Shown: piece by piece, positions 241 through 15,262 of the stretch
Layout: the number at the start of each line of letters is the position of its first letter
Numbering within the stretch: the first letter of the stretch is position 1
Assembly (NCBI GenBank): GCA_016180645.1
Contig: JACPAV010000038.1
Location: 1-36,697, forward strand
Reading direction: 5' to 3'
Length of the DNA stretch: 36,697 bases
Source: Nitrospirota bacterium
GTDB taxonomy: Bacteria; JACPQY01
Translations under genes and position numbers: made by a program
Notes under the pieces: model-generated
Database searches by the model: none
Seen by the model: the letters and a program-made list of their open reading frames with translations, nothing else
Told to the model about the DNA's origin: nothing

Positions 241-3200
241 ATGACAATCCACGGCATGAAGAACGACCCGCGATGGAAAGGTGATACGCAGACCGGCAGG
301 AAGGGAATCACCGATCTCTTGGAAGAGTTGCGCACAGCCAAGGAACTTGATGACTACGGCCTGCGCAGCGGAACGATTGGCGGCTGGGCCGATTTGAGGA
401 AGGTGTTCCTCAGACTGGAAAAGAAAGCAAAGGATGGAAATCGAGCCCTCACGCGAGATGAATTGGAGAACGCCGTCGAAGATGAGAAGCGAGACAATCG
501 CCAAGGTTTCGGGAGCGACGATTTCTTCAAGAAACTCTGCGAACCTCAATATCATCACCTTTGGTCGGCATCAGCGGAGCGCAACGGCATCCGCGACTTC
601 ATTCCCCATTTCGTTGACTACCATGAGTGGATGGAGGATCTGGGCGATCTGGAAATTCGAGATGAGAACGGCAACGTGACCGTCAAGCCGATCAGCTACA
701 CGTTTCCGGGCACGCAGAATCGGCATAAGAAAACGAGCTACCGGCACTTCAATTTCAAAGAGAAGCTCAACCGACAAATGAAGCTGTCTCTTTTCCGAAA
801 GCACACAGGGAACGGGAGCGTCCGCTATGAGTTGCTCAATGATGTTCCGGTCACGCTTTCCGCGCGGCGGCTGAAAAGGGACAAAGTCATGACAGCCGAT
901 GGCACAAGCATGAATGCAGTGTGGTGTCCGCCGCTCGTGCTGGAGGACGAAAAGCCACGCGCTGGAAAGAAGAAAAGCGGCAGATGGCAACCCGGTGATT
1001 TGCCAGTAAGCTTTTTGCTGATGGTCGAAGACGAGCGCAACGGCGAACCGCAACCAATCCACCTGAAAGTCGCCGTTCCCATCGAATGGGGTGAGCAGAA
1101 GAAGCTTCAAAAGGGAACGATCCGCTGGGAAGCTGGTTCATTGCGCGGTTATGCCAAGAAAGACGAACCTGATGCCGATAAACGGCGTCATTTCAAATGG
1201 CCGGTGGACCTGCAAGAGCAGCCCAGCACCAAAGTATCCACATCCGCCAACGACGAGGAAGGGATCACTGCAACGAGGCTGTGGTGCGGCGATGGAAAAA
1301 AGCCGCTCAACGGCTTCCGTGTGAGAACGGAAGAGGGGAGGACTGCCTCAGAGCTTCACATTCTATCCGTGGATTTGGGCATGCGCTTTTCGTCCGCGTT
1401 TGCGCGCCTGCGCGTTCACTGCGACCCCAACGGCGAAGGACGGGTCATTTCGCCCGATGGTTTTGCCACCCCGATTCGTGCCCACGTCTATCGCAAGGGC
1501 ACGCTGCGGTTACAGGGCGAGAACGCCAAGGTCTGGGATCACAAGCGAGATAGCCAGGGCCATTGCGTGAAGGACATAGAGGGCAACCATGTGTATGAGT
1601 TCCAGACGGAAACCTACGGCAATGACGGGCGCGGACGGTTTCCTAAGCTGGAGGAGATTGGGGCGTTCAGAATGCTGGCCTACCGGATCGTGCCGGAGAA
1701 TGCTTTCCCGATTATTGGCGCAGAGAAGATGACGTACCCGGAAATGGGCGACCATCTCATCATGCGGTTGCGCCGGCGCATCAGCCGGATTCGCTCGTTG
1801 TTCAGTCTGCGCTGGCACGTGAGCGGCACGATGGAACGCGACAACTCAACCGGTGTGTACGACAAGCCGCGCATAGAAGCCGACAAGAAGGAGCATTACC
1901 GGGTGGCCGCGGAGACGCTGGGCAAACTCGCGTTCCCGAAGAAACCATGGCCCGAAGGTGAGGAAGAACATCCCGAAAATGCGAAACTGCGTACTGCTTT
2001 GAATAGCGACAAGCAGGCTTGGGATGCCATCAAAGACGACCTTGAGCCTTGCAAGGAACAAGCCGACGAAAAGCTGCGGTGTCAGCGGCTGGACGCGGCC
2101 ATCAGGGGCTGGAATTGGAACGCTCTGGCCGATGAACTCAACCAGCAATTGAATGAGTACTTCAACGGCAAGGATGCAACATCTGCGTTGCTCGTTGGCG
2201 TCGTTGAGCACTGCTTGCCACTGCGAAAGCGCCATTGGCGCTGGGACGGAAGCAAGCACCGACTCTCAATGGAGCACGGAGAGACTGATCCGCAGCACCT
2301 TCCGCTCGTCCAAGGAATGCGCGGGCTGTCCATGCGGCGATTGGAGCAGGTGTTGAACTTGCGGCAGCGTTGTCAGAGCTTCGCCAAGATGGAGAAACGG
2401 TTCGCCGATGGCGACAAGGGGATCAATCCTCCACCGCCCATGAAGCGGGGCGAAGGCGATGACCCTTGCGAGGACTTGCTGGACAAGAGCAATGAACTCC
2501 GTGACCAGCGCGTAAACCAAACTGCGCACATGATCCTAGCGGAAGCTCTGGGCCTCGAACTGAAAAGTCCCGCTGAAGTAGCCGACAAGAAAGGCCGGAA
2601 GAACACAGTGGATTTGCACGGCGAATATAAGCGGATCACTTACCCGAAAACAGCAAGGCAGATGCCACGCTGTTCCATCATTGTGCTGGAGGATTTGACC
2701 CGGTATCGCACGAGCCAAGACCGGACGCGCAGCGAGAACTCGCGCCTTATGCAGTGGGCACACCGTGCCGTTGTGAAAAAGCTGGCTGACATCGCGAAGC
2801 CGTTTGGCATCACGATCATGCTGGTTGATCCAGCCTTCTCGTCACGGTTTTGCTCGCGGACAGGCTTGCCGGGCATTCGTGTGAACTCCGCGTCGCGTGG
2901 TTTTCACGAGAAGATGCCAAACGCGGCGTGGCTCATGCAGAAGAACATGGACGGCGAGCCGTCCGATCTCGCTAGGAAAGTCACGGCCCTGAAAACATTG
3001 TTTGAGCAGCACCCGAACTACAACGGGCAACTTCTCATCGCGGCGGACGGCGGAAAGGAGTTCCTGCCTGTGCCCGGCACTGCGGCGGAACGGAACACTG
3101 ACAGCGGATTGATGAACGCAGATGAAAACGCTGCCATCAATATCGGCCTGCGTGCCTTGGCGCATCCCAACCGATGGGATATTTTCCCGCGCCTTCGCAC

Positions 3201-3588
3201 GGTGGAAATCTCGGAAGAATCAGTACGCATCCGTAACCGACGCGGCTCGTTTGCCAAGTTGGCCGACGATGACCCAGAAAAATTGCTTGGGAAGGCCGAC
3301 ACATCATCGGCAACTGCTGGGAATGGTTCACGCGGAAATAAGGAAGGCGACGAGGAGCAGAACACGGAATCCTCGCAATATCCTGACTTCTTCCTCAACG
3401 CCTGCAATTTTCCCGGGATGCCGAAGAACGAGAGCTACACACCGCATCCCAACGCCGGGCTGTCGTTCAAGGCGTATCGTCGCGGACTGTTCTTGAAACG
3501 AGTCCAACAGCTTTGTGATGAACGCATCGAAGCCATCAACTCCAAGCGCCTTGAAGATTGGCGCAACAAGAAAGACATCCCGTGGTAG
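241..3588 (+). CDS. cas12b: Type V-B CRISPR effector Cas12b (C2c1), large variant. The true N-terminus lies upstream of the window, so ATG 241 is probably internal.
   Basis: RuvC-I LSVDLGMR (Asp codon 1372-1374), RuvC-II IIVLEDL (Glu 2689-2691), RuvC-III NADENAAINIG (Asp 3121-3123). FGSDDFFKKLCEPQYHHLW resembles the recalled AacCas12b REC motif FGSHDLFAKLAEPEYQALW. GLSMRRL and LRDQRVNQTAHMILAEALG are Cas12b-like. A cas4-cas1 fusion, cas2 and an array are adjacent. Confidence 0.92.
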   Translation: MTIHGMKNDPRWKGDTQTGRKGITDLLEELRTAKELDDYGLRSGTIGGWADLRKVFLRLEKKAKDGNRALTRDELENAVEDEKRDNRQGFGSDDFFKKLCEPQYHHLWSASAERNGIRDFIPHFVDYHEWMEDLGDLEIRDENGNVTVKPISYTFPGTQNRHKKTSYRHFNFKEKLNRQMKLSLFRKHTGNGSVRYELLNDVPVTLSARRLKRDKVMTADGTSMNAVWCPPLVLEDEKPRAGKKKSGRWQPGDLPVSFLLMVEDERNGEPQPIHLKVAVPIEWGEQKKLQKGTIRWEAGSLRGYAKKDEPDADKRRHFKWPVDLQEQPSTKVSTSANDEEGITATRLWCGDGKKPLNGFRVRTEEGRTASELHILSVDLGMRFSSAFARLRVHCDPNGEGRVISPDGFATPIRAHVYRKGTLRLQGENAKVWDHKRDSQGHCVKDIEGNHVYEFQTETYGNDGRGRFPKLEEIGAFRMLAYRIVPENAFPIIGAEKMTYPEMGDHLIMRLRRRISRIRSLFSLRWHVSGTMERDNSTGVYDKPRIEADKKEHYRVAAETLGKLAFPKKPWPEGEEEHPENAKLRTALNSDKQAWDAIKDDLEPCKEQADEKLRCQRLDAAIRGWNWNALADELNQQLNEYFNGKDATSALLVGVVEHCLPLRKRHWRWDGSKHRLSMEHGETDPQHLPLVQGMRGLSMRRLEQVLNLRQRCQSFAKMEKRFADGDKGINPPPPMKRGEGDDPCEDLLDKSNELRDQRVNQTAHMILAEALGLELKSPAEVADKKGRKNTVDLHGEYKRITYPKTARQMPRCSIIVLEDLTRYRTSQDRTRSENSRLMQWAHRAVVKKLADIAKPFGITIMLVDPAFSSRFCSRTGLPGIRVNSASRGFHEKMPNAAWLMQKNMDGEPSDLARKVTALKTLFEQHPNYNGQLLIAADGGKEFLPVPGTAAERNTDSGLMNADENAAINIGLRALAHPNRWDIFPRLRTVEISEESVRIRNRRGSFAKLADDDPEKLLGKADTSSATAGNGSRGNKEGDEEQNTESSQYPDFFLNACNFPGMPKNESYTPHPNAGLSFKAYRRGLFLKRVQQLCDERIEAINSKRLEDWRNKKDIPW

Positions 3589-3772
3589 GTCGGTGGGGCA
3601 TTCCGGGCTCGGGCCGCCGGCCATCGCGCCCTTAGTACCATGTTGCGTAATGATTGGAACAGGTTGGGGGTAGGGTGGCCCTCGGCAACATGGTACATAC
3701 GCCCCGCCTTTGTTCGGATTGGCGACTGGAGAGCGGGGCTAGCGCACCGCGACCAAGCTCGGATCTGTTCCA
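3588..3772. ncRNA. Structured intergenic element containing a second anti-repeat (equivalently a degenerate CRISPR repeat on the minus strand, 3704-3739)
   Basis: Perfect 12-bp inverted repeat GTACCATGTTGC (3635-3646)/GCAACATGGTAC (3685-3696). Hairpins at 3588-3622 and 3701-3739. The minus strand of 3704-3739 is GCCCCGCTCTCCAGTCGCCAATCCGAACAAAGGCGG (36 nt), similar to the array repeat. Confidence 0.4.
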
Positions 3773-3791
3773 TGAATTCGTCAACGCGGTA

Positions 3792-4057
3792 CTAGAGTGA
3801 ATTTATGAGCTGCTGGTACTCGTCATGATTGCCGATCCAAAACCAGGTGTATCCACCGGGCACGGGGGCTGCTAACGCGCGGTGGGTGATGCCGACGCGT
3901 GCCCCGACCAAACATGGAGACCGACCTTCTTGAAATGAAGGCTCGGGTGATGCTGGTTGCTCTTCAACAGACGGTAGTTCTTGATCGCGAGACGTTGAAC
4001 CCGCCGCGGCAATTTTCGATAGGCTTCCCAAAATTCCGGGCCGGCATGGCTGATCAA
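3792..4057 (-). pseudogene. RelE/ParE-like type II toxin, frameshifted
   Basis: The N-half (FWEAYRKLP...HPSLHFKKVG..VWS, ORF 3872-4057) and C-half (ARVGITHRAL...WFWIGNHDEY, ending 3792) are in different frames. The shift is at the G4 run 3902-3905. Confidence 0.8.
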
Positions 4058-4272
4058 GGAAGCGGGCGAGTACGCCCCGCGCGGAAATCCTCAATGGCTT
4101 TCTTGGCCAATCTCTCCAGCGGGCCTCCGGACCTCGCGTCCTTCTCGATTTGGCTGTCCCAAAGCCGGGCCTCGTACTCCTCGAGCCACCTGGCCATGTG
4201 CCGCACCTTGTCGGGCGACAGCCGGGCGATTTCCTTTTGGATACGCGCGATATCGCTTCCACCCTTGCTCAT
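4054..4272 (-). CDS. Putative antitoxin (72 aa) of the RelE/ParE-like toxin
   Basis: Small ORF overlapping the toxin start by 4 nt. The WDSQIEKDA..G.LERLAKKAIEDFRAGRT motif is typical of antitoxins paired with this toxin family. Confidence 0.75.
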   Translation of the reverse strand: MSKGGSDIARIQKEIARLSPDKVRHMARWLEEYEARLWDSQIEKDARSGGPLERLAKKAIEDFRAGRTRPLP

Positions 4273-4278
4273 GGCTCC

Positions 4279-4307
4279 ATTTTACGAACCGCGACTGCCC
4301 TTATCAA
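4279..4307 (-). promoter_or_regulatory. Sigma70 promoter of the TA pair; likely leaderless mRNA
   Basis: Minus strand TTGATA-17 nt-TAAAAT, followed by 6 nt and then the ATG at 4272. Confidence 0.7.
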
Positions 4308-4374
4308 GCACGGGCTTGACATCGTGAATCCCTTCATGGATACCCCGCCGTCTCTACCCCTCTCGCCCCGCCCC

Positions 4375-4422
4375 GCTTGGTCGTGGGCCTTGCATGGCTT
4401 CGCGCAAGGCCCACGACCAGGC
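4375..4422. repeat. Long perfect inverted repeat (hairpin) upstream of cas4-cas1
   Basis: TGGTCGTGGGCCTTGC (4378-4393)/GCAAGGCCCACGACCA (4404-4419), 16 bp perfect with a 10-nt loop. Confidence 0.8.
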
Positions 4423-4505
4423 AGTCGCGGGACGGCCAAGCCATCCTGGCGCCGCCCCGGCTTCCGGATTCCCGCCGGGAGCGGACAGAGCCATCCGCCC
4501 TTGTC

Positions 4506-6203
4506 ATGAGCGACGCCCCCGTTCAAACCCAAGCCGGACTTGAAGCGCAACCGCCGATGCCGGTGCGGCGGCTCCACAACTTCCTCTACTGCCCGCGCCT
4601 CTTCTACTACCAGTGGGTCGAAAATATCTTTCAGGAAAACGCGGATACGGTGGAAGGATCGCACGCGCATCGGAACGTGGACCGGCCCTCCCGCATCGAA
4701 GACCCGACGAAGCTCGATCTGCCGGAAGGGACGCAGATTCGTTCTCTTCGGCTTGCGAGTGAGAAGCTGGGACTCGTCGGTGTGGTCGATCTCATCGAAG
4801 GCGGTCCCGAAGGGGCCGTGTTGATCGATTACAAGAAAGGCTCGGCCCGTCGGGACGAAGCCGGAGAGCGCGTGGCGAAAGAGCCGGATGCGATGCAGCT
4901 CGTGGCTCAGTCTATGCTCTTGCGCGAACACGCCATCAGCGTCAAGGAGGCGTTCGTCTACTATGCCGCCGACAAGCGGAGGGTGCCTGTAGACGTATCA
5001 GAGGAACGGACCCGTGAATGCCTCGAAAAACTCGATCAGGCCAAAGCCCTCGCCGCCGAAGGCCGCTGCCCACCGCCGCTCCAGGATGATCCACGGTGCC
5101 TCTATTGCTCGGCCTATCCGATCTGTCTCCCCAATGAATCCGAGTTCTGGCGCGAACCGAAAGGTGAACCGATTACCGTCAAGCGGCCTCCGAGGCCGGA
5201 GGACGACGACGGCGAAATCCTCATCGTCCAGAGGCCCGGCGCCCAAATTGGCTTCAGGGGAGGGCAGATCGTGGTGGTCCTCAAAGGCGATACGATACGA
5301 GCGTTGCCATCCATGCAGGTGCGCGCAGTCTACGTCTACGGCGCGGTGCAAATTACAACGCAAGCGACTCATGCTTTCTTGGAACAAGGGGTCTCGGTGT
5401 CCTATTTTTCACCGTCCGGGCGTTTCCTCGGCATGCTGAACGGACTCCCCGCCTCCGGCGTGGACACGCGACGCGGTCAGTACCGTCTGTTCGATCAACC
5501 CACCACCTGCCTCGCGGTCGCGAAGGAGATGATTCGAGCCAAAATCCACAATCAACGCGTGATGCTCATGCGCAACGGCGAGCCTCCGGAGAAAGCGGTC
5601 TCGGAAATGATGCAGCTTCGGGATCAAACCTCGGAAGCGCATACCATGACCGAACTGCTTGGCCTGGAAGGGATGGCGGCGGCGCTCTACTTCGGGAACT
5701 TCGCTGGGATGCTGAAATCTTCCGACGGCGCCGGAGTCGATTTCTCATCGCGGAACCGTCGCCCTCCACGCGACCCCGTGAACGCGCTTCTTTCGATGGG
5801 ATACAGCGTCCTTTGCAAGGAGCTGGCGGGAATTTGCCACAGCGTGGGGCTCGATCCCTTCCTGGGGGTGATGCACCAGCCTCGTTACGGTCGGCCCGCC
5901 CTCGCGCTCGATCTCATGGAAGAGTTCCGGCCCCTGATCGTGGATAGCGTGGCGGTCAGCCTGATCAATCGCGGGGAAATCGCGAAGGATGACTTCATTT
6001 CCGGTTCATCCGGGGTGTTCATGAACGAAGACGGGCGCAAGGCTTTCTGGGAGGCGTATGGTCGGCGGATGGACACGGAAGTTTCCCATCCGCAGTTTGG
6101 CTACAGCATGCCGTACCGGCGTATGTTGGAGGTTCAGGCGAGACAGGTATGGCGGTTTGTTCGCGGAGAGGCATCCGGATATGTCGGATTCACGACCCGG
6201 TGA
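4506..6203 (+). CDS. cas1: Cas4-Cas1 fusion protein
   Basis: Cas4 part: YCPR, GVVD, IDYKKG, QLVAQ, C..CSAYPICLP. Cas1 part: LGLEG, RNRRPPRDPVNALLS.GY, LDPFLG..H, LALDLMEEFRP..VD. The likely start is ATG 4506; the ORF is open from 4377. Confidence 0.95.
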   Translation: MSDAPVQTQAGLEAQPPMPVRRLHNFLYCPRLFYYQWVENIFQENADTVEGSHAHRNVDRPSRIEDPTKLDLPEGTQIRSLRLASEKLGLVGVVDLIEGGPEGAVLIDYKKGSARRDEAGERVAKEPDAMQLVAQSMLLREHAISVKEAFVYYAADKRRVPVDVSEERTRECLEKLDQAKALAAEGRCPPPLQDDPRCLYCSAYPICLPNESEFWREPKGEPITVKRPPRPEDDDGEILIVQRPGAQIGFRGGQIVVVLKGDTIRALPSMQVRAVYVYGAVQITTQATHAFLEQGVSVSYFSPSGRFLGMLNGLPASGVDTRRGQYRLFDQPTTCLAVAKEMIRAKIHNQRVMLMRNGEPPEKAVSEMMQLRDQTSEAHTMTELLGLEGMAAALYFGNFAGMLKSSDGAGVDFSSRNRRPPRDPVNALLSMGYSVLCKELAGICHSVGLDPFLGVMHQPRYGRPALALDLMEEFRPLIVDSVAVSLINRGEIAKDDFISGSSGVFMNEDGRKAFWEAYGRRMDTEVSHPQFGYSMPYRRMLEVQARQVWRFVRGEASGYVGFTTR

Positions 6204-6206
6204 CCG

Positions 6207-6497
6207 ATGAAACGAACACGATTTCTGGTTTGCTATGACATTTCCAACCCCAAACGTTTGCGCCGTGTGGCCAAAGTTCTTGAAGGCTACGGTCGTCGGC
6301 TTCAGTTCTCGGTGTTCGAATGTCCGCTGGGCAGTCTGCGTTTTTCCAAGTTGAAGTCCGATCTACAAGGCGTGCTGAATCACGACCAGGACCAAGTGAT
6401 GTTCGTATCGCTGGGTGGGGCCGAGGCAGATGCCGGTCTTGTGATCGAAACGATGGGCCAGCCTTATGTGGCTCACACCCGGATAACCGTGGTCTGA
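6207..6497 (+). CDS. cas2: CRISPR-associated endoribonuclease Cas2
   Basis: LVCYDISNPKRLRRVAKVLEGYGRRLQFSVFEC motif, 96 aa, directly after cas1. Confidence 0.96.
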   Translation: MKRTRFLVCYDISNPKRLRRVAKVLEGYGRRLQFSVFECPLGSLRFSKLKSDLQGVLNHDQDQVMFVSLGGAEADAGLVIETMGQPYVAHTRITVV

Positions 6498-6526
6498 TTG
6501 ACTCATCATGAAGGTGTTGATATCTT
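6498..6526 (+). promoter_or_regulatory. Sigma70 promoter for the tracrRNA
   Basis: TTGACT (6498-6503)-17 nt-TATCTT (6521-6526). Confidence 0.65.
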
Positions 6527-6531
6527 TCATA

Positions 6532-6600
6532 TTGGCTAAGGCCAACGACCACAACCCTTCCGCCATTGGGGTTGCAGGCTCTTTGAAATCGCGAGTGCGG
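6532..6600 (+). ncRNA. Cas12b tracrRNA candidate (ends approximate)
   Basis: 5' hairpin TTGGC-TAAG-GCCAA (6532-6545). Stem CAACCC/GGGTTG has loop CCGCC (6560-6564), complementary to the repeat 3' end GGCGG. Anti-repeat CAGGCTCTTTGAAATCGC (6575-6592) pairs at 17 of 18 positions (two G-U) with repeat GCGATTTCGAACAGCTTG. The position between cas2 and the array is canonical. Confidence 0.8.
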
Positions 6601-6767
6601 AATTGATCGGCAATCAGCCTTGAGACGCTCGAAACACATATCTGGTTGAGAACGCATGATTATTCGAGTTCTGCTGTGGTGACTCGAAGCGGGAAGATCG
6701 GGCGATTCGAGAATGCTCGCAACCCGGTGCCGATCCTGCTGTCTTGCGGGCCGTTTCGAGACGCGCA
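6601..6767 (+). promoter_or_regulatory. CRISPR leader region
   Basis: Non-coding segment between the tracrRNA and the first repeat. Contains the inverted repeat TTCGAGT/ACTCGAA within 6663-6688. Confidence 0.5.
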
Positions 6768-6927
6768 GCCGACTCACCAGCGATTTCGAACAGCTTGAGG
6801 CGGAGGACGAAGGGAAAAACGCATACCCACCCCAGGGGCCGACTCACCAGCGATTTCGAACAGCTTGAGGCGGCTTTCGCTTTCGCAATCGCGGCGCGGG
6901 CGGCGGGCCGACTCACCAGCGATTTCG
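6768..6927 (+). CRISPR. CRISPR array: 2 full 36-nt repeats, 1 truncated repeat, 2 spacers
   Basis: Repeat GCCGACTCACCAGCGATTTCGAACAGCTTGAGGCGG at 6768-6803 and 6838-6873, with only the first 21 nt at 6907-6927. Spacers are 6804-6837 (34 nt) and 6874-6906 (33 nt). Confidence 0.93.
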
Positions 6928-7000
6928 GGAAATCTGGGGACAGGATACTCATTTCCGACTCGTTCACCTGAAGAATTGGTACACTGTCCCCAGATTTCCC
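6927..7000. repeat. REP/MITE-like palindromic element, copy 1
   Basis: Perfect 17-bp inverted repeat GGGAAATCTGGGGACAG (6927-6943)/CTGTCCCCAGATTTCCC (6984-7000). Confidence 0.85.
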
Positions 7001-7005
7001 ACGGG

Positions 7006-7042
7006 TTGACGGTTGATAACACATTGTAATAGAATGTTATCA
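7006..7042 (+). promoter_or_regulatory. TA promoter with palindromic operator; likely leaderless mRNA
   Basis: TTGACG (7006-7011)-18 nt-TAGAAT (7030-7035), with ATG at 7042. Inverted repeat TGATAACA (7014-7021)/TGTTATCA (7035-7042). Confidence 0.65.
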
Positions 7043-7266
7043 TGATTCGAACACAGGTCAGTTTGGGGAGGGGCGACTACGAGGCGGCCAAGACAGAGGC
7101 CAGGCGGCTGGGTATCCCCTTCGCGGAGCTGGTCCGGCGGGCCCTGCGAGGCATCTTGCCGGTCCGGTCGAAAAAGCCGTGGATGAAATATGCCGGCATG
7201 GTGAGATCCGGAGACGCCGCCTCAAGCCGGACAATCGACGAAGTGGTCTACGGCCATGAGCGATGA
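7042..7266 (+). CDS. RHH/CopG-like antitoxin (VapB-like)
   Basis: MIRTQVSL...A...ARRLGI.FAELVRRAL ribbon-helix-helix pattern; overlaps the PIN gene. Confidence 0.8.
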   Translation: MIRTQVSLGRGDYEAAKTEARRLGIPFAELVRRALRGILPVRSKKPWMKYAGMVRSGDAASSRTIDEVVYGHER

Positions 7267-7663
7267 ATGCTATGTGGACACCTCCGCATTCATCGCCTTC
7301 CTCGACGGTTCGGACTCCTTCCACTCGTTGTTCCAGAGGCTGTTTGCCGATCCGCCCCGTCTCATAACGTCTCCCCTCGTGATCGCCGAGGGCCACGGCT
7401 GGTTCCTCCGGCGGTACGATGCCCCGCGCGCCTTGCAATTTCTCCGCTTCATCGAAGCGCTGGCGACTCTCCAGATCATGGCCGTCGGCCCGGAGGAGAT
7501 TCGCGCCGGCGAAAAGTTCCTTCGGAAATTCATGGATCAGAGAATTACACTGACCGACGCCGTGGGACTGCTGATCATGGAAAAACGCCGCCACAAGATC
7601 TGCTGGAGTTCGGACGCGCACCTCGGTCTCACCGGCGCCCGCCTGGTCATCCACTCATCGTAA
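7256..7663 (+). CDS. vapC: PIN-domain toxin (VapC family)
   Basis: YVDTSAFIA, VIAE, TLTDAV and SSDAH supply the acidic PIN motifs; 135 aa. Confidence 0.88.
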   Translation: MSDECYVDTSAFIAFLDGSDSFHSLFQRLFADPPRLITSPLVIAEGHGWFLRRYDAPRALQFLRFIEALATLQIMAVGPEEIRAGEKFLRKFMDQRITLTDAVGLLIMEKRRHKICWSSDAHLGLTGARLVIHSS

Positions 7664-7673
7664 ATCCATGCGA

Positions 7674-7762
7674 GGAAATCCGGGGACCGCCTACTCATTT
7701 CCAAATCGTTCACCTGAAGAATGGGTACACTGTCCCTGGATTTTCCTGTCCCTGGATTTCCC
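7674..7762. repeat. REP/MITE-like palindromic element, copy 2, with duplicated right arm
   Basis: 7674-7746 matches copy 1 (6928-7000) at 63 of 73 positions in direct orientation. An extra CTGTCCCTGGATTTCCC occupies 7746-7762. Confidence 0.85.
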
Positions 7763-7771
7763 CGGGGGACA

Positions 7772-8308
7772 TCAATACCGGACGATCGAGAAGGCTTTGT
7801 GGGGTTTGAGCTTGTCCCTGCCGTGGAGGAAGGTGAGTTCGATTAGGAATGCACACTCCACGACTTTTCCGCCGCTGCGCGTCACGAGTTCGATCGCGGC
7901 GCGGGCGGTCCCGCCGGTGGCCAGCACGTCATCCACAATGAGCACGCGATCTCCCGCCGAGATGGCGTCCTGGTGGATCTCGACGGTGTCTGTTCCGTAC
8001 TCCAGTTGATACTCCACCGAGTGCGTCTTGTAGGGTAGTTTGCCGCGCTTGCGCATCGGGATGATGCCGGCGCGCAGCCGGAGCGCGAGAGGTGAGGCAA
8101 AGAGGAAACCCCGCGCATCCACGGCGAGCACCAGGTCGATGCGTTTGCTCTTGTAGTGATTCGCCAGTGTGTCGATGACGCCCCTGAAGGCCCGGGTCGA
8201 TTTCAGAAGGGGAGTGATGTCCTTGAAGATGATCCCGGCCTTCGGGAAATCCGGGATGTCACGGATGTAGAGCTTGGGATCTAGGGGTCGCGGTCGTTTC
8301 CGACTCAT
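7772..8308 (-). CDS. apt: Adenine phosphoribosyltransferase
   Basis: IRDIPDFPKAGIIFKDITPLL, DARGF, YQLEYGTD and the PRPP motif VLIVDDVLATGGT. Confidence 0.97.
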   Translation of the reverse strand: MSRKRPRPLDPKLYIRDIPDFPKAGIIFKDITPLLKSTRAFRGVIDTLANHYKSKRIDLVLAVDARGFLFASPLALRLRAGIIPMRKRGKLPYKTHSVEYQLEYGTDTVEIHQDAISAGDRVLIVDDVLATGGTARAAIELVTRSGGKVVECAFLIELTFLHGRDKLKPHKAFSIVRY

Positions 8309-10242
8309 GAGGCAGCCACCTGTACCTTTCCTGAGACTTTACGGACGGAGGTGATTTCGAGAACGTGGAGTTTGTCTGAAATCCGTTTGGAGAATTCGTG
8401 GAAACGGATGCCGACTTCATAGTAGCCGGGGGCATGGTCTCCGGCTTCCTGGCACCAGACGAGTTTACCCCTGAGGGAGATCATCTTGGCGTCATGAGGC
8501 AGGAGGAGATCGCAGGAGACCTCTCGGCCCACCCGCACGCTTGAAGGAATGTACAGGTTCAAACCCGCGGGACTGATGTTCTTGAGGAGGGCTTGCCCCG
8601 GGGAAGATTGCCGGGTGGCCTGCCACACCATGCGCCCTTCGGTGGTCAGGCGCGTGTAGAGCCTTCGTTCCTGGAAGCGGACCACGCGGTTTTTCCCCGT
8701 TTGCTTGGCCTCATACATCGCGAGGTCGGCGAGGCGGATGAGCTCGTCCTTCGTGTCGGCCTTGATCTCGGGGTAGGACACGACGCCGAGGCTGATGGTT
8801 TGATGAATGGGATGCTGCTCGGTCTTGAAAATGTTCTTGTCCACCGTGCGCCGGATTCGTTCGGCGGTGATGAGCGCACCCTTGAGCGGGGTCTCCGGAA
8901 GGATGATCGCGAACTCCTCGCCGCCGTAGCGTGCGATCTGGTCCACGTCGCGAAGATTCGATTTCATGATCTTTGCCGTTTCGCGCAGAACGTGGTCGCC
9001 GGTGAGATGACCGTAGCGGTCGTTCACCTGCTTGAAGTTGTCCAGGTCGATCATGAGGAAGGACACGGGCCGCCCGTAACGCCGGGCCTTTTTGTACTCG
9101 GTGTCGAGCAGAGTATGGAGGTGTCGGTGATTGTAGGTTTCCGTGAGTCCGTCCAGGTAGGACAGGCGTTCCAGTTGCGAGTGGGAGGTCGCATTGGAAA
9201 TGGCGCTGGCCAGATGGTCCGCTACCTGACGAATGGAGCTGGTGTCCTTGTCGGTCAGATAACCTTGCGGATGGTCGTTGACGTTGAGTACGCCGATGCT
9301 GCCGATGCCGACCTGAAGGGGCACACACAGGGCGAAGGGCGACATGTATTTCTTGCGCAGCCGGCCGTGGTAGTAGGAGCTCTTGGCGAAATCGGCTTCG
9401 TAGATCGCCTGACGCTTTTGCATGGCATCGAACATCAGGTTTCCATCGGTGAAGCGAATCCGCAGGTCATCCCGAAGTTGTGGATGGTTGTGTGCGAACA
9501 GGCGGAGGATGCGGGTGTCGTGGTCGTACAGAAAGAGGGTGAAGAGGCGAATGCCGAGCACTTCGGCAAGTTGGTCCCGCACCGCCCTCCGAATTTCGTC
9601 GAGATTGAAGGAGTTGGTGTTCTGGCTGAAACGGGAGAGGAGGTCGGTGCGCATGAGATCGTCGGCCAGGGACAGCCGGTACCGTTCCGCCTGCTCTTTT
9701 TCCCGGCCGAGCTGGCCGTTCTTCTCGCGCAATTCGTCGTTGAGGATCTCCAGCTCCAAGTTGCGTTTTTCGAGGTCTCTCTTCAGTTCATTGATCCGGT
9801 CGTACGCGGTCTTGAGGGAGAGGAGGTTGCGGATGCGGAGTTCGAGGATGTTGAGGTCGAACGGTTTCTGGATATAGTCGTCCGCGCCGACTTGGAGGCT
9901 CTTCATTTTTCCCTCGGTGCCTTCGAGGCCGCTCACGAGGATGACGGGGGTGTAGTGCTCCTCTTTTCCGCGCACCCAGTCGCAGAGCTTGTAGCCGGAG
10001 AAATCGCCGAGGATGGCGTCCAGCACCAGAATATCGACGGACTCCTTCTTCAGCATGGAGAGAGCCGTCTTGCCGGAGTCTGCTGTGATGACGTGATACT
10101 CCCTGGAGGAGAGATAGTCGACGACAAGTTTTGAGAACGCGGGATCGTCGTCGACCACGAGGATGGCGGGCCGCTTTTCCGGCGTAACGGCGGCCTCGCG
10201 GTCGCAATCCGAAACCGGGCCGTCCTGTTCGGGGTCTATCAT
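8305..10242 (-). CDS. Diguanylate cyclase, REC-coiled coil-GAF-GGDEF-PilZ
   Basis: REC (ILVVDDD...VLD...KPF), GAF (LCVPL..G...IGVLNV), GGEEF with an RDVD I-site, and a C-terminal RRLYTR...NISPAG PilZ signature. Confidence 0.9.
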   Translation of the reverse strand: MIDPEQDGPVSDCDREAAVTPEKRPAILVVDDDPAFSKLVVDYLSSREYHVITADSGKTALSMLKKESVDILVLDAILGDFSGYKLCDWVRGKEEHYTPVILVSGLEGTEGKMKSLQVGADDYIQKPFDLNILELRIRNLLSLKTAYDRINELKRDLEKRNLELEILNDELREKNGQLGREKEQAERYRLSLADDLMRTDLLSRFSQNTNSFNLDEIRRAVRDQLAEVLGIRLFTLFLYDHDTRILRLFAHNHPQLRDDLRIRFTDGNLMFDAMQKRQAIYEADFAKSSYYHGRLRKKYMSPFALCVPLQVGIGSIGVLNVNDHPQGYLTDKDTSSIRQVADHLASAISNATSHSQLERLSYLDGLTETYNHRHLHTLLDTEYKKARRYGRPVSFLMIDLDNFKQVNDRYGHLTGDHVLRETAKIMKSNLRDVDQIARYGGEEFAIILPETPLKGALITAERIRRTVDKNIFKTEQHPIHQTISLGVVSYPEIKADTKDELIRLADLAMYEAKQTGKNRVVRFQERRLYTRLTTEGRMVWQATRQSSPGQALLKNISPAGLNLYIPSSVRVGREVSCDLLLPHDAKMISLRGKLVWCQEAGDHAPGYYEVGIRFHEFSKRISDKLHVLEITSVRKVSGKVQVAAS

Positions 10243-11207
10243 GACCTCCCCATCCCAGGGACATGCCCCATTTGGCGGAACTTTTCAAGACGCTGCTGGA
10301 CCAGGAGGTCGGGATCGAGGCCGGCGAGTGCGTCGAGATGCGTGACGATCGCGGCCTTGAGCTCCCGCGCCATCCGGGTTGGATCGCGATGCGCGCCTCC
10401 GGTGGGCTCCGTCAGGATCTGGTTGGTCACGCCCAGCCGGAGGAGATCCTGCGCGGTCAGTCGGAGTTCTTCCGCCGCGCGTTGCGGGTTCTCGCCGTTC
10501 TTCCAGAGAATCGCCACGCAGGCTTCGGGCGAGATCACCGAATAGACCGAATGCTCGAGCATGATCAGGCGGTCGGCCACCGCGATGGCCAAGGCGCCAC
10601 CGCTTCCTCCCTCGCCGATGATCGCGGTCACGATGGGAACTTTGAGAAGAAACATGTCGCGGATATTATGGGCGATCGCTTCGGCTTGTCCCCGTTCTTC
10701 GGCTTCGATCCCCGGATAGGCTCCAGGGGTGTCCACCAGCGTGACGATGGGTTTGCGAAAGCGTTCGGCCATTCGAAAGAGCCGCAGGGCCTTTCGATAT
10801 CCTTCGGGCTGACTCATTCCGAAATTGCGGTGGACGCGCTCCTTCGTGCTTTTTCCCTTGGAATGTCCGAGAACGAGGACCTTGTGGCTCCCCAGCCGGG
10901 CGAACCCACCGACGATGGACGGATCCTCACCGAACGAGCGGTCGCCATGAAGCTCCATGAACTCTTCGCACATGTCCCTGAGATAGTCGGGGGACTGGGG
11001 CCGGTCCGGATGGCGCGCCACGAGAGTCTTTTGCCAGGGAGTGAGCCGGCCGTAGGTCTCGGCCAGGGCTTTGTGGAGGCGGTCGCGCAGTTTCTGGACT
11101 TCCCGCGGGGCGGCGGTCGGGTGGCCGGGAACGCTCAACTCCAACTCTTGGAGTTCGCGTTCCGCTTCTTCGATGTCCTGTTCAAACGGAAGGTAGTGTT
11201 GAACCAT
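10239..11207 (-). CDS. accA: Acetyl-CoA carboxylase carboxyltransferase alpha subunit
   Basis: ARHPDRP, ELHGDR, NFGM..PEGYRKALR, DTPGAYPG..AEERGQ, GEGGSGGALA. Confidence 0.97.
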   Translation of the reverse strand: MVQHYLPFEQDIEEAERELQELELSVPGHPTAAPREVQKLRDRLHKALAETYGRLTPWQKTLVARHPDRPQSPDYLRDMCEEFMELHGDRSFGEDPSIVGGFARLGSHKVLVLGHSKGKSTKERVHRNFGMSQPEGYRKALRLFRMAERFRKPIVTLVDTPGAYPGIEAEERGQAEAIAHNIRDMFLLKVPIVTAIIGEGGSGGALAIAVADRLIMLEHSVYSVISPEACVAILWKNGENPQRAAEELRLTAQDLLRLGVTNQILTEPTGGAHRDPTRMARELKAAIVTHLDALAGLDPDLLVQQRLEKFRQMGHVPGMGRS

Positions 11208-12183
11208 GCTTTTCCAGGAAAAGTCTTGCCTCCCCGAGGATTACATCATACCTGTCGGGAGATATCCAATTCGCGCCTTTTTCCTTTCGATACCAGGTGG
11301 TCTGTCGGCGGGCGAATTCGGAGGTCTCCTTTTGGATGAGGGAAACGGCTTCCTCCAAAGAGAGATCTCCCCGGCAGACTCGAAGAAGCTGCGCGTAGCC
11401 GATGGAGTGGAGCGGACGGCATCGCTCGTCATAGCCGCGATTCAGGAGTTCTTGCACTTCCTCCACCCATCCCTCGCTCAGCATGTGCTCCACCCGGCGG
11501 TCAATCCGCTTCCTGAGTTCCTCCCGCGGGACTTGGAGAACGAACAGCCGGGGATCGAAGGGGTGTTCGGCGAATCGGTGGTCCTCCCGCCATGCGGAAA
11601 TGGGACGACCCGTGGAGAGCCAGACTTCAAGGGCGCGAACGAGGCGTTGTGAGTCGTTCGGATGAAGCTTCCCCGCGGTGGCGGGATCGGCAACCCGCAG
11701 TTCCGCATAAAGGGAAGCGGAGCCTTCGGCCTTGAGACGTGACTCCAGTCGGGCGCGAATCTCCGGGTCGCGTCCCGCGCCTTCGAACAGGCCGTAGAGC
11801 AGCGAGCGGATGTAAAAGCCCGTCCCCCCAACCACGATGGCCGAATGGCCCCTGTCCAGAATGGATCGAATGGCCTCCGCAGCGAGGCGGCGAAACTGCT
11901 GGGCATCGAACGGTTCGTCGGGGTTCCGGATATCGAGCAGATGGTACGATCGCTCGCTTCGCAGTCCGGACGAAGGTTTGCCCGTTCCCACATTGACGTG
12001 CCGATAGATCTGGACCGAGTCGGCGTTGACCAGCTCTCCATCGAGATCGAGGGCCAGGCGATGGGCGATGGCCGTCTTGCCGGTGGCGGTGGGCCCCGTG
12101 ACGACAATGATCCGTGGCGCTCGGTTTGCGATCCGGTCTTCTATGGCCGGGTCACCAGGTTGCGAGGGCCGCAACTCTTCCAT
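11182..12183 (-). CDS. miaA: tRNA dimethylallyltransferase
   Basis: GPTATGKT, NADSVQIY, GTGKP, VGGTGFY, SIGY, FARRQTTW. The start is probably ATG 12183, just after the mutL stop. Confidence 0.95.
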   Translation of the reverse strand: MEELRPSQPGDPAIEDRIANRAPRIIVVTGPTATGKTAIAHRLALDLDGELVNADSVQIYRHVNVGTGKPSSGLRSERSYHLLDIRNPDEPFDAQQFRRLAAEAIRSILDRGHSAIVVGGTGFYIRSLLYGLFEGAGRDPEIRARLESRLKAEGSASLYAELRVADPATAGKLHPNDSQRLVRALEVWLSTGRPISAWREDHRFAEHPFDPRLFVLQVPREELRKRIDRRVEHMLSEGWVEEVQELLNRGYDERCRPLHSIGYAQLLRVCRGDLSLEEAVSLIQKETSEFARRQTTWYRKEKGANWISPDRYDVILGEARLFLEKHGSTLPSV

Positions 12184-12191
12184 CCGCGGGG

Positions 12192-13964
12192 CTATTTTCT
12201 TTTGAATGCTTTTTCCAGTGCGTCGAACGTCCATTCGAGGAGAACCGGGCGTCCGTGTGGGCAGGTGTAGGCCGACGGGGAGGAGTAGGTTTGCGCGACG
12301 AGCGATTCCAGCTCGGCCGGGTTCAGCTCATCTCCGGCTTTTACGGCGGCGCGGCACGCGATGAGATCCAGGAGGTGCTCGCGGGGATCTCCCGTCTTGT
12401 CGCCCGGCGCATCGCTCCACTCGCGAAGGAGATCGCGCAGAAAGGATTCCGCGTGGGGGACGTTCAATCCGGAAGGAATCGACTTGATGGCAAAAGCCGA
12501 GCCCATGGGCTCGATGTCCATTCCGGCGCCGTCCAGCATCGGGATGAGTTCGTGGAGGATCACGGCTTCCTGGGGCGCGGCCTTGAAAATCTCCGGCATC
12601 AGGAGCGCCTGATGAGTCACGCCTCCGTTCTGAAGCTGTCCCTTCAGCTTCTCGAAAAGGACGCGCTCGTGCGCCGTATGTTGGTCGATCACCAGGAGGC
12701 CCTGTGGACCTTCGCAGAGGATGAACGTGTTGCGCACTTGCCCCAGAACCACGGGGAGGAGGGCAGACTCCATGCCCTGAGGGGAGGTGGGCGAAACTCG
12801 ATCGGTGGATCCCATCGACGTGGCGTCCGACGCCACCGGTGCATTCGCGTCGGCTGCGGGACCTGCGAAAGTGGGGGCCTGCGGAACCGAGGCGTGGTGA
12901 AGGAGCGGCAAGGAGGGTGCGGGGGGCGCGGGTGTCACCTCCGCTCCTGGGGCGAGAGGGGAAGGGGAGAAGAGCCGCGGTCCCAGCGCTTCGAGGGTGG
13001 CGGTGCGGACGACGCGATAGATTTCCGAAGTGTCTCTGAATCGAACTTCGATCTTCTGCGGGTGCACGTTCACATCCACCAGTTTGGGATCGATGTCGAG
13101 CATGAGTACGCCGATAGGGAATCGCCCCGGCGGAATCGCCTGGGAAAAGGCGTCGCAAACGGCGTGCACGAGAACCCGGTCGCGGAAGTATCGCCCGTTG
13201 ACATAAAGATATAGGCCCGCGGAATTCGGCCAGTGAAGGAGCGGACTTCCGGCGAAGCCCCCAACCTTCAAGGGCCCTTCCTCGTGATCCAGCTTGAGGA
13301 GCTTGTCTTCCACTCGCTCTCCGAGCACGTCCGCCGCGCGCCTCGCCTGGGAGGCCCGGGGAAAATCGAGCAGGGAGCGGTCTTGATGGTTGACGCGAAA
13401 CTCCACGTCGGGCCGGGCCAGCGCCAGACGGGAGACGATCTGGGCGCAGGCCCCAAGCTCGGAGCGTTCCGATTTCATGAATTTGCGGCGGGCGGGCGTG
13501 TTGAAAAAGAGATCAGCCGCGGTGATCCAGGTTCCTTGCGGCATGGCGGTAGGTTCTTCCGCGACGACTTTCGGCCCTTCCACCGAGAATCGGAAGCCTT
13601 CGTTGGCGTCGGCTGGCCGTGTGCGAAGGGTGAGGCGGGATACAGCGGCGATGCTGGGAAGCGCTTCTCCGCGGAAGCCGAGCGTGCGCACCGCGAAGAG
13701 ATCATCTTCGCTGGAGATCTTACTCGTGGCATGCCTCTCGATGGCCAGCTTGGCGTCGGCGGGAGTCATGCCGATTCCGTCGTCACGGACCTCGATGGTT
13801 CGGAGGCCGCCGGCTTCGAGTCGGACGTCGATCGATTTCGCCATGGCGTCGAGCGCATTTTCGACCAATTCCTTCACGACCGATGCGGGCCGCTCCACCA
13901 CTTCGCCCGCGGCGATCTTCGCGATGAGCTCTTCCGGCAGCCGCCTGATCTTTCCCTCGGTCAA
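12192..13964 (-). CDS. mutL: DNA mismatch repair endonuclease MutL
   Basis: IAAGEVVERPASVVKELVENALDA, HATSKI, GFRGEAL, DVNVHP.K, DQHTAHER and CPHGRP. Confidence 0.97.
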   Translation of the reverse strand: MTEGKIRRLPEELIAKIAAGEVVERPASVVKELVENALDAMAKSIDVRLEAGGLRTIEVRDDGIGMTPADAKLAIERHATSKISSEDDLFAVRTLGFRGEALPSIAAVSRLTLRTRPADANEGFRFSVEGPKVVAEEPTAMPQGTWITAADLFFNTPARRKFMKSERSELGACAQIVSRLALARPDVEFRVNHQDRSLLDFPRASQARRAADVLGERVEDKLLKLDHEEGPLKVGGFAGSPLLHWPNSAGLYLYVNGRYFRDRVLVHAVCDAFSQAIPPGRFPIGVLMLDIDPKLVDVNVHPQKIEVRFRDTSEIYRVVRTATLEALGPRLFSPSPLAPGAEVTPAPPAPSLPLLHHASVPQAPTFAGPAADANAPVASDATSMGSTDRVSPTSPQGMESALLPVVLGQVRNTFILCEGPQGLLVIDQHTAHERVLFEKLKGQLQNGGVTHQALLMPEIFKAAPQEAVILHELIPMLDGAGMDIEPMGSAFAIKSIPSGLNVPHAESFLRDLLREWSDAPGDKTGDPREHLLDLIACRAAVKAGDELNPAELESLVAQTYSSPSAYTCPHGRPVLLEWTFDALEKAFKRK

Positions 13965-15262
13965 ATCCCGAGCCTCTTCATCAAGTGTGGAACGAGGTCG
14001 TCCTTGAGTACTTCCTCCTGTTTGGACGCTTTCATGTCCCGGACGATGACCCTCCCGTTCTTCATCTCCTCATCGCCGAGGATGACGGTGTACTCGCATC
14101 CCAGAGATTGTGCCTCGTCAAGCTGGCGCCTGAACTTGCGGTCCTCCAGGTCGAGTCTGATTCGGACTGGCTTCGGGGATTCGGCGAAGTGCCTTCGGAG
14201 GCGTTCAGCCAAATCGGATGCCTGGGTCCGCATCGCATCGCTGGTGGCGCCGATGTACAAACGGGGGGTTTGGGGTGATTCCCTCGGAGAGACGAGCATC
14301 GCCAGCCGTTCGACGCCGATCGCGAAGCCGAGTGCGGGGGTGGATGGACCTCCCAGCGCCTCGACCAACCCGTCATACCGGCCTCCCGCGGCCACGGCGT
14401 TTTGAGATCCGAGGCCATCCTCGGCCGCGACTTCGAAGACGGTACGCGTGTAGTAGTCGAGGCCGCGGACGAGCCAATTGTTCCAGGTCGGTGTAATCTT
14501 CAATTCCTCCAGACCCCCGTTGAGGCCGTCGACTTTCGCTCTGCACGGGTCACACCAAAAGGTCGTCAAATTGGGCGCATCGATAAGGACTTTTCGGCAG
14601 CCCTCATTCTTGCAGTCCAGGACGCGCATCGGATTGGAGGCGAGCCTCCTGCGGCAATCCTCGCAAAGGGCGTCCCGCTGGGCCTGAAGAAAGCCCAACA
14701 GTTCCCGCGTAAAGTTGGGCCGGCAGACGGGGCAGCCAAGCGAATTGACCACGAGCCTTAGGCGTGCGCCATCGGCAACCGACCTAAGGAACGCCCACAA
14801 CATTGCGATGACTTCCACGTCCGCACGGACATTTCCCACACCGAACATTTCGGCGCCGATCTGATGGAACTGGCGATAGCGTCCCTTCTGCGGCCGTTCA
14901 TTCCGGAACATCGGCCCCGTGTAGTAGAGTCGTTGGATCGGATTCGACATGTGGAGGCCGTTCTTGATGTAGGCGCGCACCGCGGACGCCGTCCCTTCAG
15001 GTCTCAAACACGATTCCCGGGCGCCGGTGTCCTCATGTCCATCGGTCACGAAGAACATTTCTTTCTCGACAATGTCGGTGGTGCCGCCGACGCTTCGAAC
15101 AAACAGCTCGGCCGGTTCTACAATGGGTAAGATGATGGGACGGTAGTCATACGCCTTAAAGGTTTTCCGGGCCGAATCTACCAGTCTGTCCATTCGCTCG
15201 GCTTCCTCTCCAAGGATGTCGCGGAACCCTCGCTCGGTCTCCACATCGGGTTTCATGCTCAT
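13961..15262 (-). CDS. hisS: Histidine--tRNA ligase
   Basis: RGFRD, DIVEKEMF, LRPEGTA, GPMFRNERPQKGRYRQFHQIGAE, LVRGLDYY, GGRYDGL. The likely start is 15262 or 15256. Confidence 0.96.
   Translation of the reverse strand: MSMKPDVETERGFRDILGEEAERMDRLVDSARKTFKAYDYRPIILPIVEPAELFVRSVGGTTDIVEKEMFFVTDGHEDTGARESCLRPEGTASAVRAYIKNGLHMSNPIQRLYYTGPMFRNERPQKGRYRQFHQIGAEMFGVGNVRADVEVIAMLWAFLRSVADGARLRLVVNSLGCPVCRPNFTRELLGFLQAQRDALCEDCRRRLASNPMRVLDCKNEGCRKVLIDAPNLTTFWCDPCRAKVDGLNGGLEELKITPTWNNWLVRGLDYYTRTVFEVAAEDGLGSQNAVAAGGRYDGLVEALGGPSTPALGFAIGVERLAMLVSPRESPQTPRLYIGATSDAMRTQASDLAERLRRHFAESPKPVRIRLDLEDRKFRRQLDEAQSLGCEYTVILGDEEMKNGRVIVRDMKASKQEEVLKDDLVPHLMKRLGI

Follow-up and report, generated by a model that had tools for sequence, protein, structure and literature searches.

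The closest described counterparts of the element reported here are REPINs, hairpins made of two repetitive extragenic palindromic (REP) half-sites, and REP-associated tyrosine transposases (RAYTs), as treated in the accessible parts of the papers by Bertels and Rainey (PMC3116915, PMC3337134) and of PMC5581495. We analysed contig JACPAV010000038.1, a 36,697-nt stretch of DNA (hereafter the window, meaning its full length) from a bacterium of a rarely sampled groundwater lineage, in which two direct copies (E1 and E2) of a 73-nt REPIN-like palindrome, E, enclose a toxin–antitoxin (TA) cassette at the broken end of a CRISPR array. This anatomy is real and non-random. Our preferred reading, put forward tentatively and with somewhat less than even confidence, is a rearrangement in which REPIN-type palindromes served as joints; it would have placed the travelling TA cassette at the edge of a CRISPR island, or kept it there, and cut the array. 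E resembles REPINs in having two inverted REP-like half-sites in one hairpin, in being extragenic and in having related branches that flank Y1/RAYT genes in inverted orientation. It differs from them in that the 73-nt form has only three copies, that the genome holds no RAYT flanked by E's exact arms and that its copies cluster as direct pairs around single genes, an arrangement not met in those parts of the three papers. Literature searches, which reached some of the texts only in part, turned up no REP or REPIN pair with TA cargo.

Other described systems share parts of this organization. Integron cassettes likewise have imperfect palindromes around single promoter-bearing accessory genes, and TA cassettes are typical of chromosomal integrons. 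Here, by contrast, no integron core sites (RYYYAAC/GTTRRRY) are present in E1, E2 or the third copy, E3; none of 14 matches to the integron integrase profile TIGR02249 exceeds the cut-off (best 81.9 bits versus 265); there is no cassette array; and the orientation of the cargo varies. A preliminary description of the window had proposed a non-autonomous hairpin-bounded cassette, either REP/RAYT-like or integron-like. The REP/REPIN-like nature of the element is supported, in a genome with seven Y1/RAYT hits; the integron reading finds neither attC core sites nor an integron integrase. Cis-mobilisable elements, segments without an integrase of their own that lie between att sites and are mobilised in trans, also hold small cargo between direct copies of a site-like sequence, with any enzyme encoded elsewhere. 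They differ in that no recombinase is known to use E; the 16 Pfam tyrosine recombinase matches in the genome lie on other contigs or far from E loci. A 19-nt E-like match near tyrosine recombinase hits on contig C21 lies inside a coding region and was discarded as a chance match.

Composites of miniature inverted-repeat transposable elements (MITEs) and of Tn3-derived inverted-repeat miniature elements (TIMEs) also consist of two short non-autonomous inverted-repeat copies around passenger genes, with no transposase inside. The accessible text of PMC3934969 describes an integron cut by the same 439-bp MITE at both ends, and that of PMC4133298 describes TIMEs that make mosaic non-autonomous transposons. 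Such elements come from DDE or Tn3-type transposons and move with target-site duplications, whereas E is of the REP/Y1 type and its copies are only 86% alike. No target duplication was seen by eye at the outer edges (6920–6927 versus 7762–7770), where no systematic search was made, and a census of E arms found no longer element bounded by them besides the gene-flanking pairs. Insertion sequences in cas genes are known to damage CRISPR-Cas loci (PMC10359306, in the part accessible to us). There, as here, an element coincides with the loss of part of a CRISPR-Cas locus; here, in contrast, the break lies within a repeat, directly at a REPIN-type palindrome, and the two spacer units that remain are intact.

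The array, the palindromes and the cassette comprise the following features:

6768..6803, + strand: CRISPR repeat 1, 36 nt
6804..6837, + strand: spacer 1, 34 nt
6838..6873, + strand: repeat 2, 36 nt, identical to repeat 1
6874..6906, + strand: spacer 2, 33 nt
6907..6927, + strand: repeat 3, incomplete, only its initial 21 of 36 nt, which match repeats 1 and 2 exactly
6928..7000, + strand: E1, REPIN-like palindrome, 73 nt, arms GGAAATCTGGGGACAG... / ...CTGTCCCCAGATTTCC
7006..7035, + strand: TA promoter, sigma-70-like, TTGACG-18-TAGAAT, 10/12 matches
7014..7043, + strand: operator-like inverted repeat TGATAACA...TGTTATCA, extending as far as the start codon of the antitoxin ORF
7042..7266, + strand: antitoxin-like open reading frame (ORF) in the vapB position, 74 aa, no Pfam or NCBIfam match
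7256..7663, + strand: vapC-type PIN toxin gene, 135 aa, Pfam PIN 30.9 bits versus cut-off 23.6
7674..7746, + strand: E2, second direct copy, 63/73 identical to E1 and more degenerate
7746..7761, + strand: tandem duplicate of the E2 right arm, 16 nt

Repeat 3 stops after 21 nt exactly where the 73-nt hairpin begins, as the preliminary description had it: the stub occupies 6907–6927 and E1 starts at 6928. Because the stub is identical to the other repeats over 21 of 21 positions and is followed by unrelated sequence, this is a breakpoint and not gradual decay. The proximal 21 nt of the repeat are found only at 6768, 6838 and 6907. The missing 15 nt were found neither after E1 (P 0.27) nor after E2 (P 0.99), nor by further alignment (P 0.998), nor elsewhere; their absence beyond the palindromes therefore argues against an element simply inserted into an unbroken repeat. 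A loss of 15 nt or more, perhaps including further parts of the array, would have taken place at the palindrome edge. A search for the rest of the array, which the preliminary description had suggested, recovered the full repeat at up to nine mismatches only at 6768 and 6838 of the assembly, while a 20-nt repeat core gave eight single matches in genome_contigs, which look like chance, and no array in other species.

Nothing is missing from the leader, the candidate tracrRNA or the two complete repeat-spacer units. Since a type V guide is located 3′ of its repeat, two crRNAs are still possible. Neither spacer has an exact match in viral_contigs, and spacer 1 has no second copy in the genome at up to six mismatches. 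Spacer 2 shares an exact 16-nt word, ATCGCGGCGCGGGCGG (6888–6903), with positions 7893–7908 on the same strand 1 kb downstream, within a phosphoribosyltransferase gene; this is too short for targeting. In the same gene, the 15 nt across the junction of stub and E1 (6924–6938) recur with one mismatch at 8241–8255, probably by chance.

Using Logan contigs, we compared this region with a second assembly of metagenomic runs. Contigs from runs X1, X2 and X3 span 6844 to 8931 or beyond, and one from run X4 spans 6844–7368, all with 0 differences from the window. Single contigs cross the 6927/6928 junction in four of four runs and the whole cassette in three; the runs belong to one study and three of them may be the source of the window DNA, which makes this a second assembler's result and not fully independent data. 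The de Bruijn contigs break at 6797 and 6867, within the full CRISPR repeats, as expected. As single contigs run through stub, E1, cassette and E2 without differences, a misjoin at 6927, the assembly error that by the preliminary description's own account would refute it if reads showed it, is unlikely. A joint from 7062 to 7280, with loose ends at 7035 and 7315, belongs to a different, related TA locus (4 differences in 36 nt). These loose ends occur in X2 and X3, so that the same metagenomes hold a related TA locus with a similar promoter in another context.

The arms of E1 are 27 nt long and 85% complementary, the palindrome extends back to G6927, and the single-stranded DNA folds at −21.2 kcal/mol (z −5.1, with none of 200 shuffles as good). 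E2, which agrees with the earlier claim of a second direct copy, 63/73 identical, just past the vapC stop, starts 10 nt beyond the toxin stop codon and, with its flanks, folds more weakly (z −1.3, 22 of 200 shuffles as good). The assembly under study (G000; 4.72 Mb in 65 contigs, the window being contig C55) has a third 73-nt copy, E3, which is solitary, lies downstream of pyrG on C49 and folds with z −7.3. Across the three copies, 89.3% of 75 stem cells pair, versus 26–56% with slid partners. E1, E2, E3 and the related copies described below on C31, on C40 and in the sister genome G001, which is the only sequenced relative, all lie between ORFs. An Rfam search over 3500–8000 returned nothing relevant, and no terminator-like site scored in 6400–7900. 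A 24-nt E-specific pattern has no match in metagenome_contigs and none in G001 at up to three mismatches. Directly outside E-type hairpins we also observed tandem 7–9-nt units that repeat the outer arm motif: GAAATC-like units at C40:49400–49445, GATTTCCCC at C31:310615–310645 and GGACATCTG at C49:28958–28990. Such runs are similar to the 16-nt duplicate that follows E2 and point to slippage in the arms.

As the 73-nt form occurs only three times in G000, E is no abundant REP and lacks the over-representation that characterizes REPINs. The preliminary description would have given up its cassette had E proved to be an abundant intergenic REP without pairing around cargo; this is not the case, E having three copies and pairs occurring at other loci. 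Hairpins with GGGGACA arms number six full copies plus two or three remnants at five loci in G000, and in G001 five of ten pattern matches, sorted by eye, have GGGGACAG arms. The arm of E3, GGGGACAGTATACT, is 1 nt off an abundant palindrome family, GGTGACAGTATACT, which is represented in G000 by 59 exact half-sites and 39 elements. Y1_Tnp/RAYT profiles hit seven genes in G000 and eight in G001 (loci L056–L063). Half-sites of the GGTGACAGTATACT family flank the RAYT gene at C36:71675–72397 in inverted orientation, the signature arrangement of a RAYT and its REPs, and a G001 RAYT on C79, whose best G000 match is the C36 RAYT, is flanked by GGGGACATTCCTATTTTC arms. The search for a Y1/RAYT transposase, which the preliminary description had suggested, found related REP branches at such genes in both genomes. 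From its arms, E appears to be a low-copy branch of the REP-like families that flank Y1/RAYT genes in G000 and G001. It works like a REPIN with incomplete membership: the hairpin, the extragenic position and the family ties are there and the abundance is missing. Separately, several RAYTs are flanked by their own palindrome families (GGTGACAGTATACT, GGGGTCAAGTCTTGA, a GTAG type, found around the RAYT on C25, and GGGGACATTCC; G000 contigs C36, C46, C48, C25 and C52 and G001 loci L056–L063), an unusually rich set of RAYT-REP pairs for one lineage.

Pairs of such hairpins recur around single genes. A search for further copies bracketing small genes, as the preliminary description had suggested, gave three 73-nt copies in all and, at another three or four loci of G000 and G001, hairpins of the same family on either side of a single gene that is often non-syntenic. 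On C31 of G000, copies that are 51/55 identical enclose a 263-aa gene with no family match and a GC content of 0.49, against 0.56–0.59 in the flanks. On C40, a carboxyltransferase gene lies between the remnant of a left arm and a full copy, with a BrnT/CopG-like pair just beyond. In G001, two copies on C75 enclose an AAA_14/DUF4143 gene that adjoins an RHH and PIN pair, while a full copy and a right-arm remnant on C63 enclose a 472-aa gene inserted behind ftsZ, the G000 homologue of which (76.6% amino acid identity) stands in a different context. The solitary E3 adjoins a 251-aa gene that has no counterpart in the syntenic pyrG spacer of G001. When all hairpins are turned the same way, the + strand carries the cargo in the window, and the − strand carries it at C31, G001 C75 and G001 C63. 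The abundant GGTGACAGTATACT family forms one pair, 53/57 alike and in the same orientation, around a CmcI/Methyltransf_24-type methyltransferase gene (C7:28039–28907, locus L144) between helicase and RmuC genes; in a family of 39 copies, such a pair does not exceed chance expectation (P 0.27). The C7 and C31 loci have no DNA match in G001 and are hence uninformative on empty sites. We considered whether flanking copies are sisters, as a sign of target duplication, and rejected this: it holds on C31 (51/55), fails in the window and at G001 C75, and gives a tie at C7.

The interval between E1 and E2 (7001–7673) contains only the promoter, the antitoxin ORF and the toxin ORF, as had been described. 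Also as described, the window has no transposase or integrase in the Pfam matches of its 22 scanned ORFs, which include 20 of the 21 non-nested ORFs of at least 70 aa (6190–6777 on the − strand, which overlaps cas2, was left out) and five without a Pfam match. Among PDB sequences, the PIN toxin matches M. tuberculosis VapC26 (5x3t_B, E 5.4e-8). The antitoxin and toxin ORFs overlap by 11 nt, and the predicted genes, a PIN toxin, a small overlapping upstream ORF and one promoter with an operator palindrome, correspond to a putative type II VapBC module.

This TA family is independent of the palindrome. Relatives of the toxin, at 58–65% identity, occur in at least 304 metagenome stretches, and the family is found across many soil and sediment metagenomes in unrelated contexts. 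In the 56 of 81 loci (the window included) with a placeable start motif, alignment shows an GTGATAAC/GTTATCA operator pair conserved upstream, the antitoxin start ATGATYCG... is conserved, and conservation begins about 35–40 nt upstream, at the operator palindrome, and ends at the toxin stop. Because the TA family is widespread and the E pattern is unmatched in the same metagenome collection, E is native to the lineage and the cassette the traveller. The earlier idea that E–TA–E moves as one unit is accordingly doubtful, as E1 is also equally near E3.

Most TA relatives lack flanking repeats. Exact words of at least 13 nt common to both flanks were found in six of 67 usable relative loci, and in a blastn screen of the flanks three of 42 usable relatives (80 loci kept) exceeded 26.3 bits, the maximum of 127 mismatched control pairs. 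In two of these loci, L072 (75.8 bits) and L064 (40.1 bits), the cassette is directly bordered by locus-specific direct repeats that duplicate the 3′-terminal part of the gene upstream; they measure 54 nt with 93% identity in L072 and 20 nt, all identical, in L064. L072, where such copies enclose a member of the same TA family, is akin to cis-mobilisable elements in this respect. An ORF past the second copy in L072 looks by eye like the start of a candidate tyrosine integrase.

The left copy adjoins the breakpoint, and the right copy lies 10 nt from the stop codon of the phosphoribosyltransferase gene, the first one in synteny with G001. Most likely, the palindromes are the joints of a rearrangement. 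We infer its order of events, its enzyme and any loss of distal sequence as follows. A segment consisting of the cassette plus one palindrome would have recombined with a palindrome already resident at the edge of the CRISPR island. For this step, recombination from palindrome to palindrome, RecA-dependent recombination or catalysis by a RAYT would each be possible. A hairpin-associated deletion would then have taken away the final 15 nt of repeat 3 together with anything distal to them. That such repeats serve as joints for moving single genes is hinted at by the anatomy, though not proved. As for the recurrent pairs, on random placement of eight elements 0.012 pairs within 1 kb are expected, at least two pairs have a probability of 4e-5 and at least three pairs within 2 kb arise in 0 of 100,000 trials (for G001, P of at least one pair 0.015), in a control that ignores any preference of the elements for particular regions.

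That feature of the control is one of several points that weigh against joints of this kind. The base rate of the 'non-syntenic' label is high, many bracketed and neighbouring genes being so labelled, because G001 is 84% complete and much smaller than G000. None of the seven Y1_Tnp genes of G000 is itself flanked by GGGGACAG arms. Stem covariation amounts to one compensatory pair among three sequences and is not significant (173 of 500 shuffles reach it). E1 is no further from E3 (62/73) than from E2 (63/73), and the pair on G001 C75 (79/110) are not mutual nearest copies, C75a being closer to a copy on C10 (87/108); since E1 is equally near E3 and the C75 copies are not nearest relatives, the flanking copies do not represent a recent duplication of a single site. 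Neither excised or circular forms nor a joint skipping the cassette appeared in the Logan contigs; as these drop rare variants, this carries little weight. Finally, the genome collection holds two genomes of this candidate phylum, G000 and G001, and G001 lacks the whole CRISPR-TA block, leaving no empty or single-palindrome site for comparison.

The alternative that survives best is local hopping of REPINs. Under this explanation the TA cassette already stood at the array end, a palindrome inserted nearby and a copy of it moved on to the nearest intergenic site that would accept it, leaving the two on either side of exactly one gene unit; the distal 15 nt would have been destroyed when the palindrome entered the terminal repeat or by a deletion beside it, and the palindromes would be passengers, not the means of arrival. 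Membership of E in RAYT-associated REP families and the fact that flanking copies are not sister duplicates both fit this account. IS200/IS605-type single-strand transposons insert with a strand bias, and such a bias would give the direct orientation without any cassette mechanism. Some of the enclosed genes also look ordinary: the carboxyltransferase on C40 resembles a metabolic gene, and the pair of the GGTGACAG family on C7, itself within chance, encloses an ordinary-looking methyltransferase. However, only strongly local hopping would make two or three adjacent pairs among six to eight elements anything but very unlikely, several enclosed genes are compositionally foreign or relocated between G000 and G001, which is not expected from passive hopping, and G000 has no cognate RAYT for the GGGGACAG arms. 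We regard local hopping as the main rival, unlikely though worth serious attention.

The rearrangement reading can be extended further. In this candidate phylum of two genomes, REPIN palindromes might be attachment sites that travel with single-gene cassettes lacking an integrase. Recombination between palindromes, possibly RAYT-catalysed, would release a circle made of a gene and one palindrome; the circle would re-insert at any resident palindrome, and the whole would be a REP-based analogue of integron cassettes or cis-mobilisable elements. The TA pair at the broken array end would be one such insertion. We consider this extension doubtful and offer it as speculation.

The model put forward in the preliminary description, in which a hairpin-bounded cassette, integron-like or Y1-driven, joined the CRISPR repeat site-specifically through mimicry between the repeat and the element's arm, is very unlikely. 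The breakpoint does coincide exactly with the end of the element, GATTTC occurs both at the repeat end and in the right arm, and GAAATC/GATTTC-like runs adjoin other copies on C40 and C31. Yet the claimed likeness of the repeat half-site to the right arm is at chance level: the best local alignment of repeat and E1 scores 7 against a shuffled mean of 6.7 (P = 0.49, 2000 shuffles), and that of repeat and E2 (P 0.046, 2000 shuffles) involves a different part of the element. Neither attC core sites nor an integron integrase over cut-off accompanies the cassette, the orientation of the cargo relative to the hairpin differs among loci, the TA family is widespread while the E pattern was not found in the metagenome collection, and simple insertion would have left the other 15 nt of the repeat beyond the element, where they are not.

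Passive coincidence is likewise highly improbable. Terminal CRISPR repeats are often degenerate, and on this account the stub would be an ordinary decayed terminal repeat beside terminator-like or structural intergenic hairpins, the adjacency being meaningless; E2 between convergent genes and E1 after an array both occupy common places for hairpins, and Rfam finds nothing in the region. Against this stand the 21/21 identity of the stub followed by unrelated sequence, which marks a breakpoint and not decay, the lack of a scored terminator-like site and the clustering of pairs far beyond random placement. A misassembly that fused the array end to an unrelated contig at 6927, towards which the start of the window at a contig end and the contig breaks in the repeats at 6797 and 6867 might point, is hardly credible with the junction bridged in four runs and the cassette fully crossed in three with 0 differences.

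Upstream of the array lie the cas genes, and downstream of E2 a conserved gene:

241..3588, + strand: cas12b ORF, 1115 aa, NCBIfam NF033949 398 bits versus cut-off 150, Pfam C2c1 RuvC-like domain E 1.5e-23
4377..6203, + strand: cas4-cas1 fusion in one ORF, Pfam Cas_Cas1 E 3e-88, Cas_Cas4 E 3.5e-15
6207..6497, + strand: cas2, Pfam CRISPR_Cas2 E 3.1e-20
6498..6526, + strand: promoter-like site directly 3′ of cas2, TTGACT-17-TATCTT, 9/12 matches, candidate tracrRNA promoter
6575..6592, + strand: candidate tracrRNA anti-repeat, 15/18 nt complementary to repeat positions 13–30
7772..8308, − strand: phosphoribosyltransferase gene, Pfam Pribosyltran E 3.2e-16, convergent with vapC

With cas12b, cas4, cas1, cas2, an adjacent array of 36-nt repeats and a candidate anti-repeat, the locus belongs to type V-B, with the caveat that the cas12b ORF covers only positions 341–1218 of the 1253-position Cas12b profile and leaves the first 340 unmatched. 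The segment 6575–6592 is the best match to the reverse-complemented repeat within window positions 1–6760 and may be the anti-repeat of a tracrRNA that shares its direction of transcription with the array; in described V-B loci the tracrRNA is placed as it is here. The phosphoribosyltransferase gene is the first of a block of about 8 kb that is syntenic with G001 (7800–15260 versus G001:C31). The gene adjacent to the phosphoribosyltransferase gene in G001 has its G000 orthologue 2.7 kb from the end of contig C62, and that end carries a DUF3800 gene and ORFs resembling the Cas12b N-terminus (C62:35322–36585, locus L146 2323–3586). One of these, a 65-aa ORF, weakly matches Cas12b profile positions 1–23. 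A 369-aa ORF at the same end has a similar N-terminal motif and was rejected as the Cas12b N-terminus, having no NCBIfam, Pfam or PDB sequence match. By synteny, C62 probably adjoins the start of the window, and cas12b may be split by the contig gap, or fragmented. If C62 does adjoin the window, a block of DUF3800, CRISPR-Cas and TA genes would stand between two convergent conserved genes and be absent from G001, with E2 at its right-hand border. Elsewhere in the window, at 28374–36665, a 2763-aa ORF contains many RCC1 repeats along with Ig-like and carboxypeptidase-regulatory-like domains and has the look of a giant surface-type protein.

If the pairing reflects local hopping of a decaying repeat family, it would be ordinary genome wear in a poorly sampled lineage. 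For the CRISPR system the consequence is the smaller one: an array reduced to two usable spacers at a palindrome rearrangement, with an addiction-type module at the edge of the island. REPs and REPINs are among the commonest repeats in bacteria, and their function and the role of RAYTs are debated. Should paired direct copies prove to capture single accessory genes or to mobilise them, gene flow would be a concrete function for REPINs, and this would also explain how minimal TA cassettes move without recombination functions of their own.

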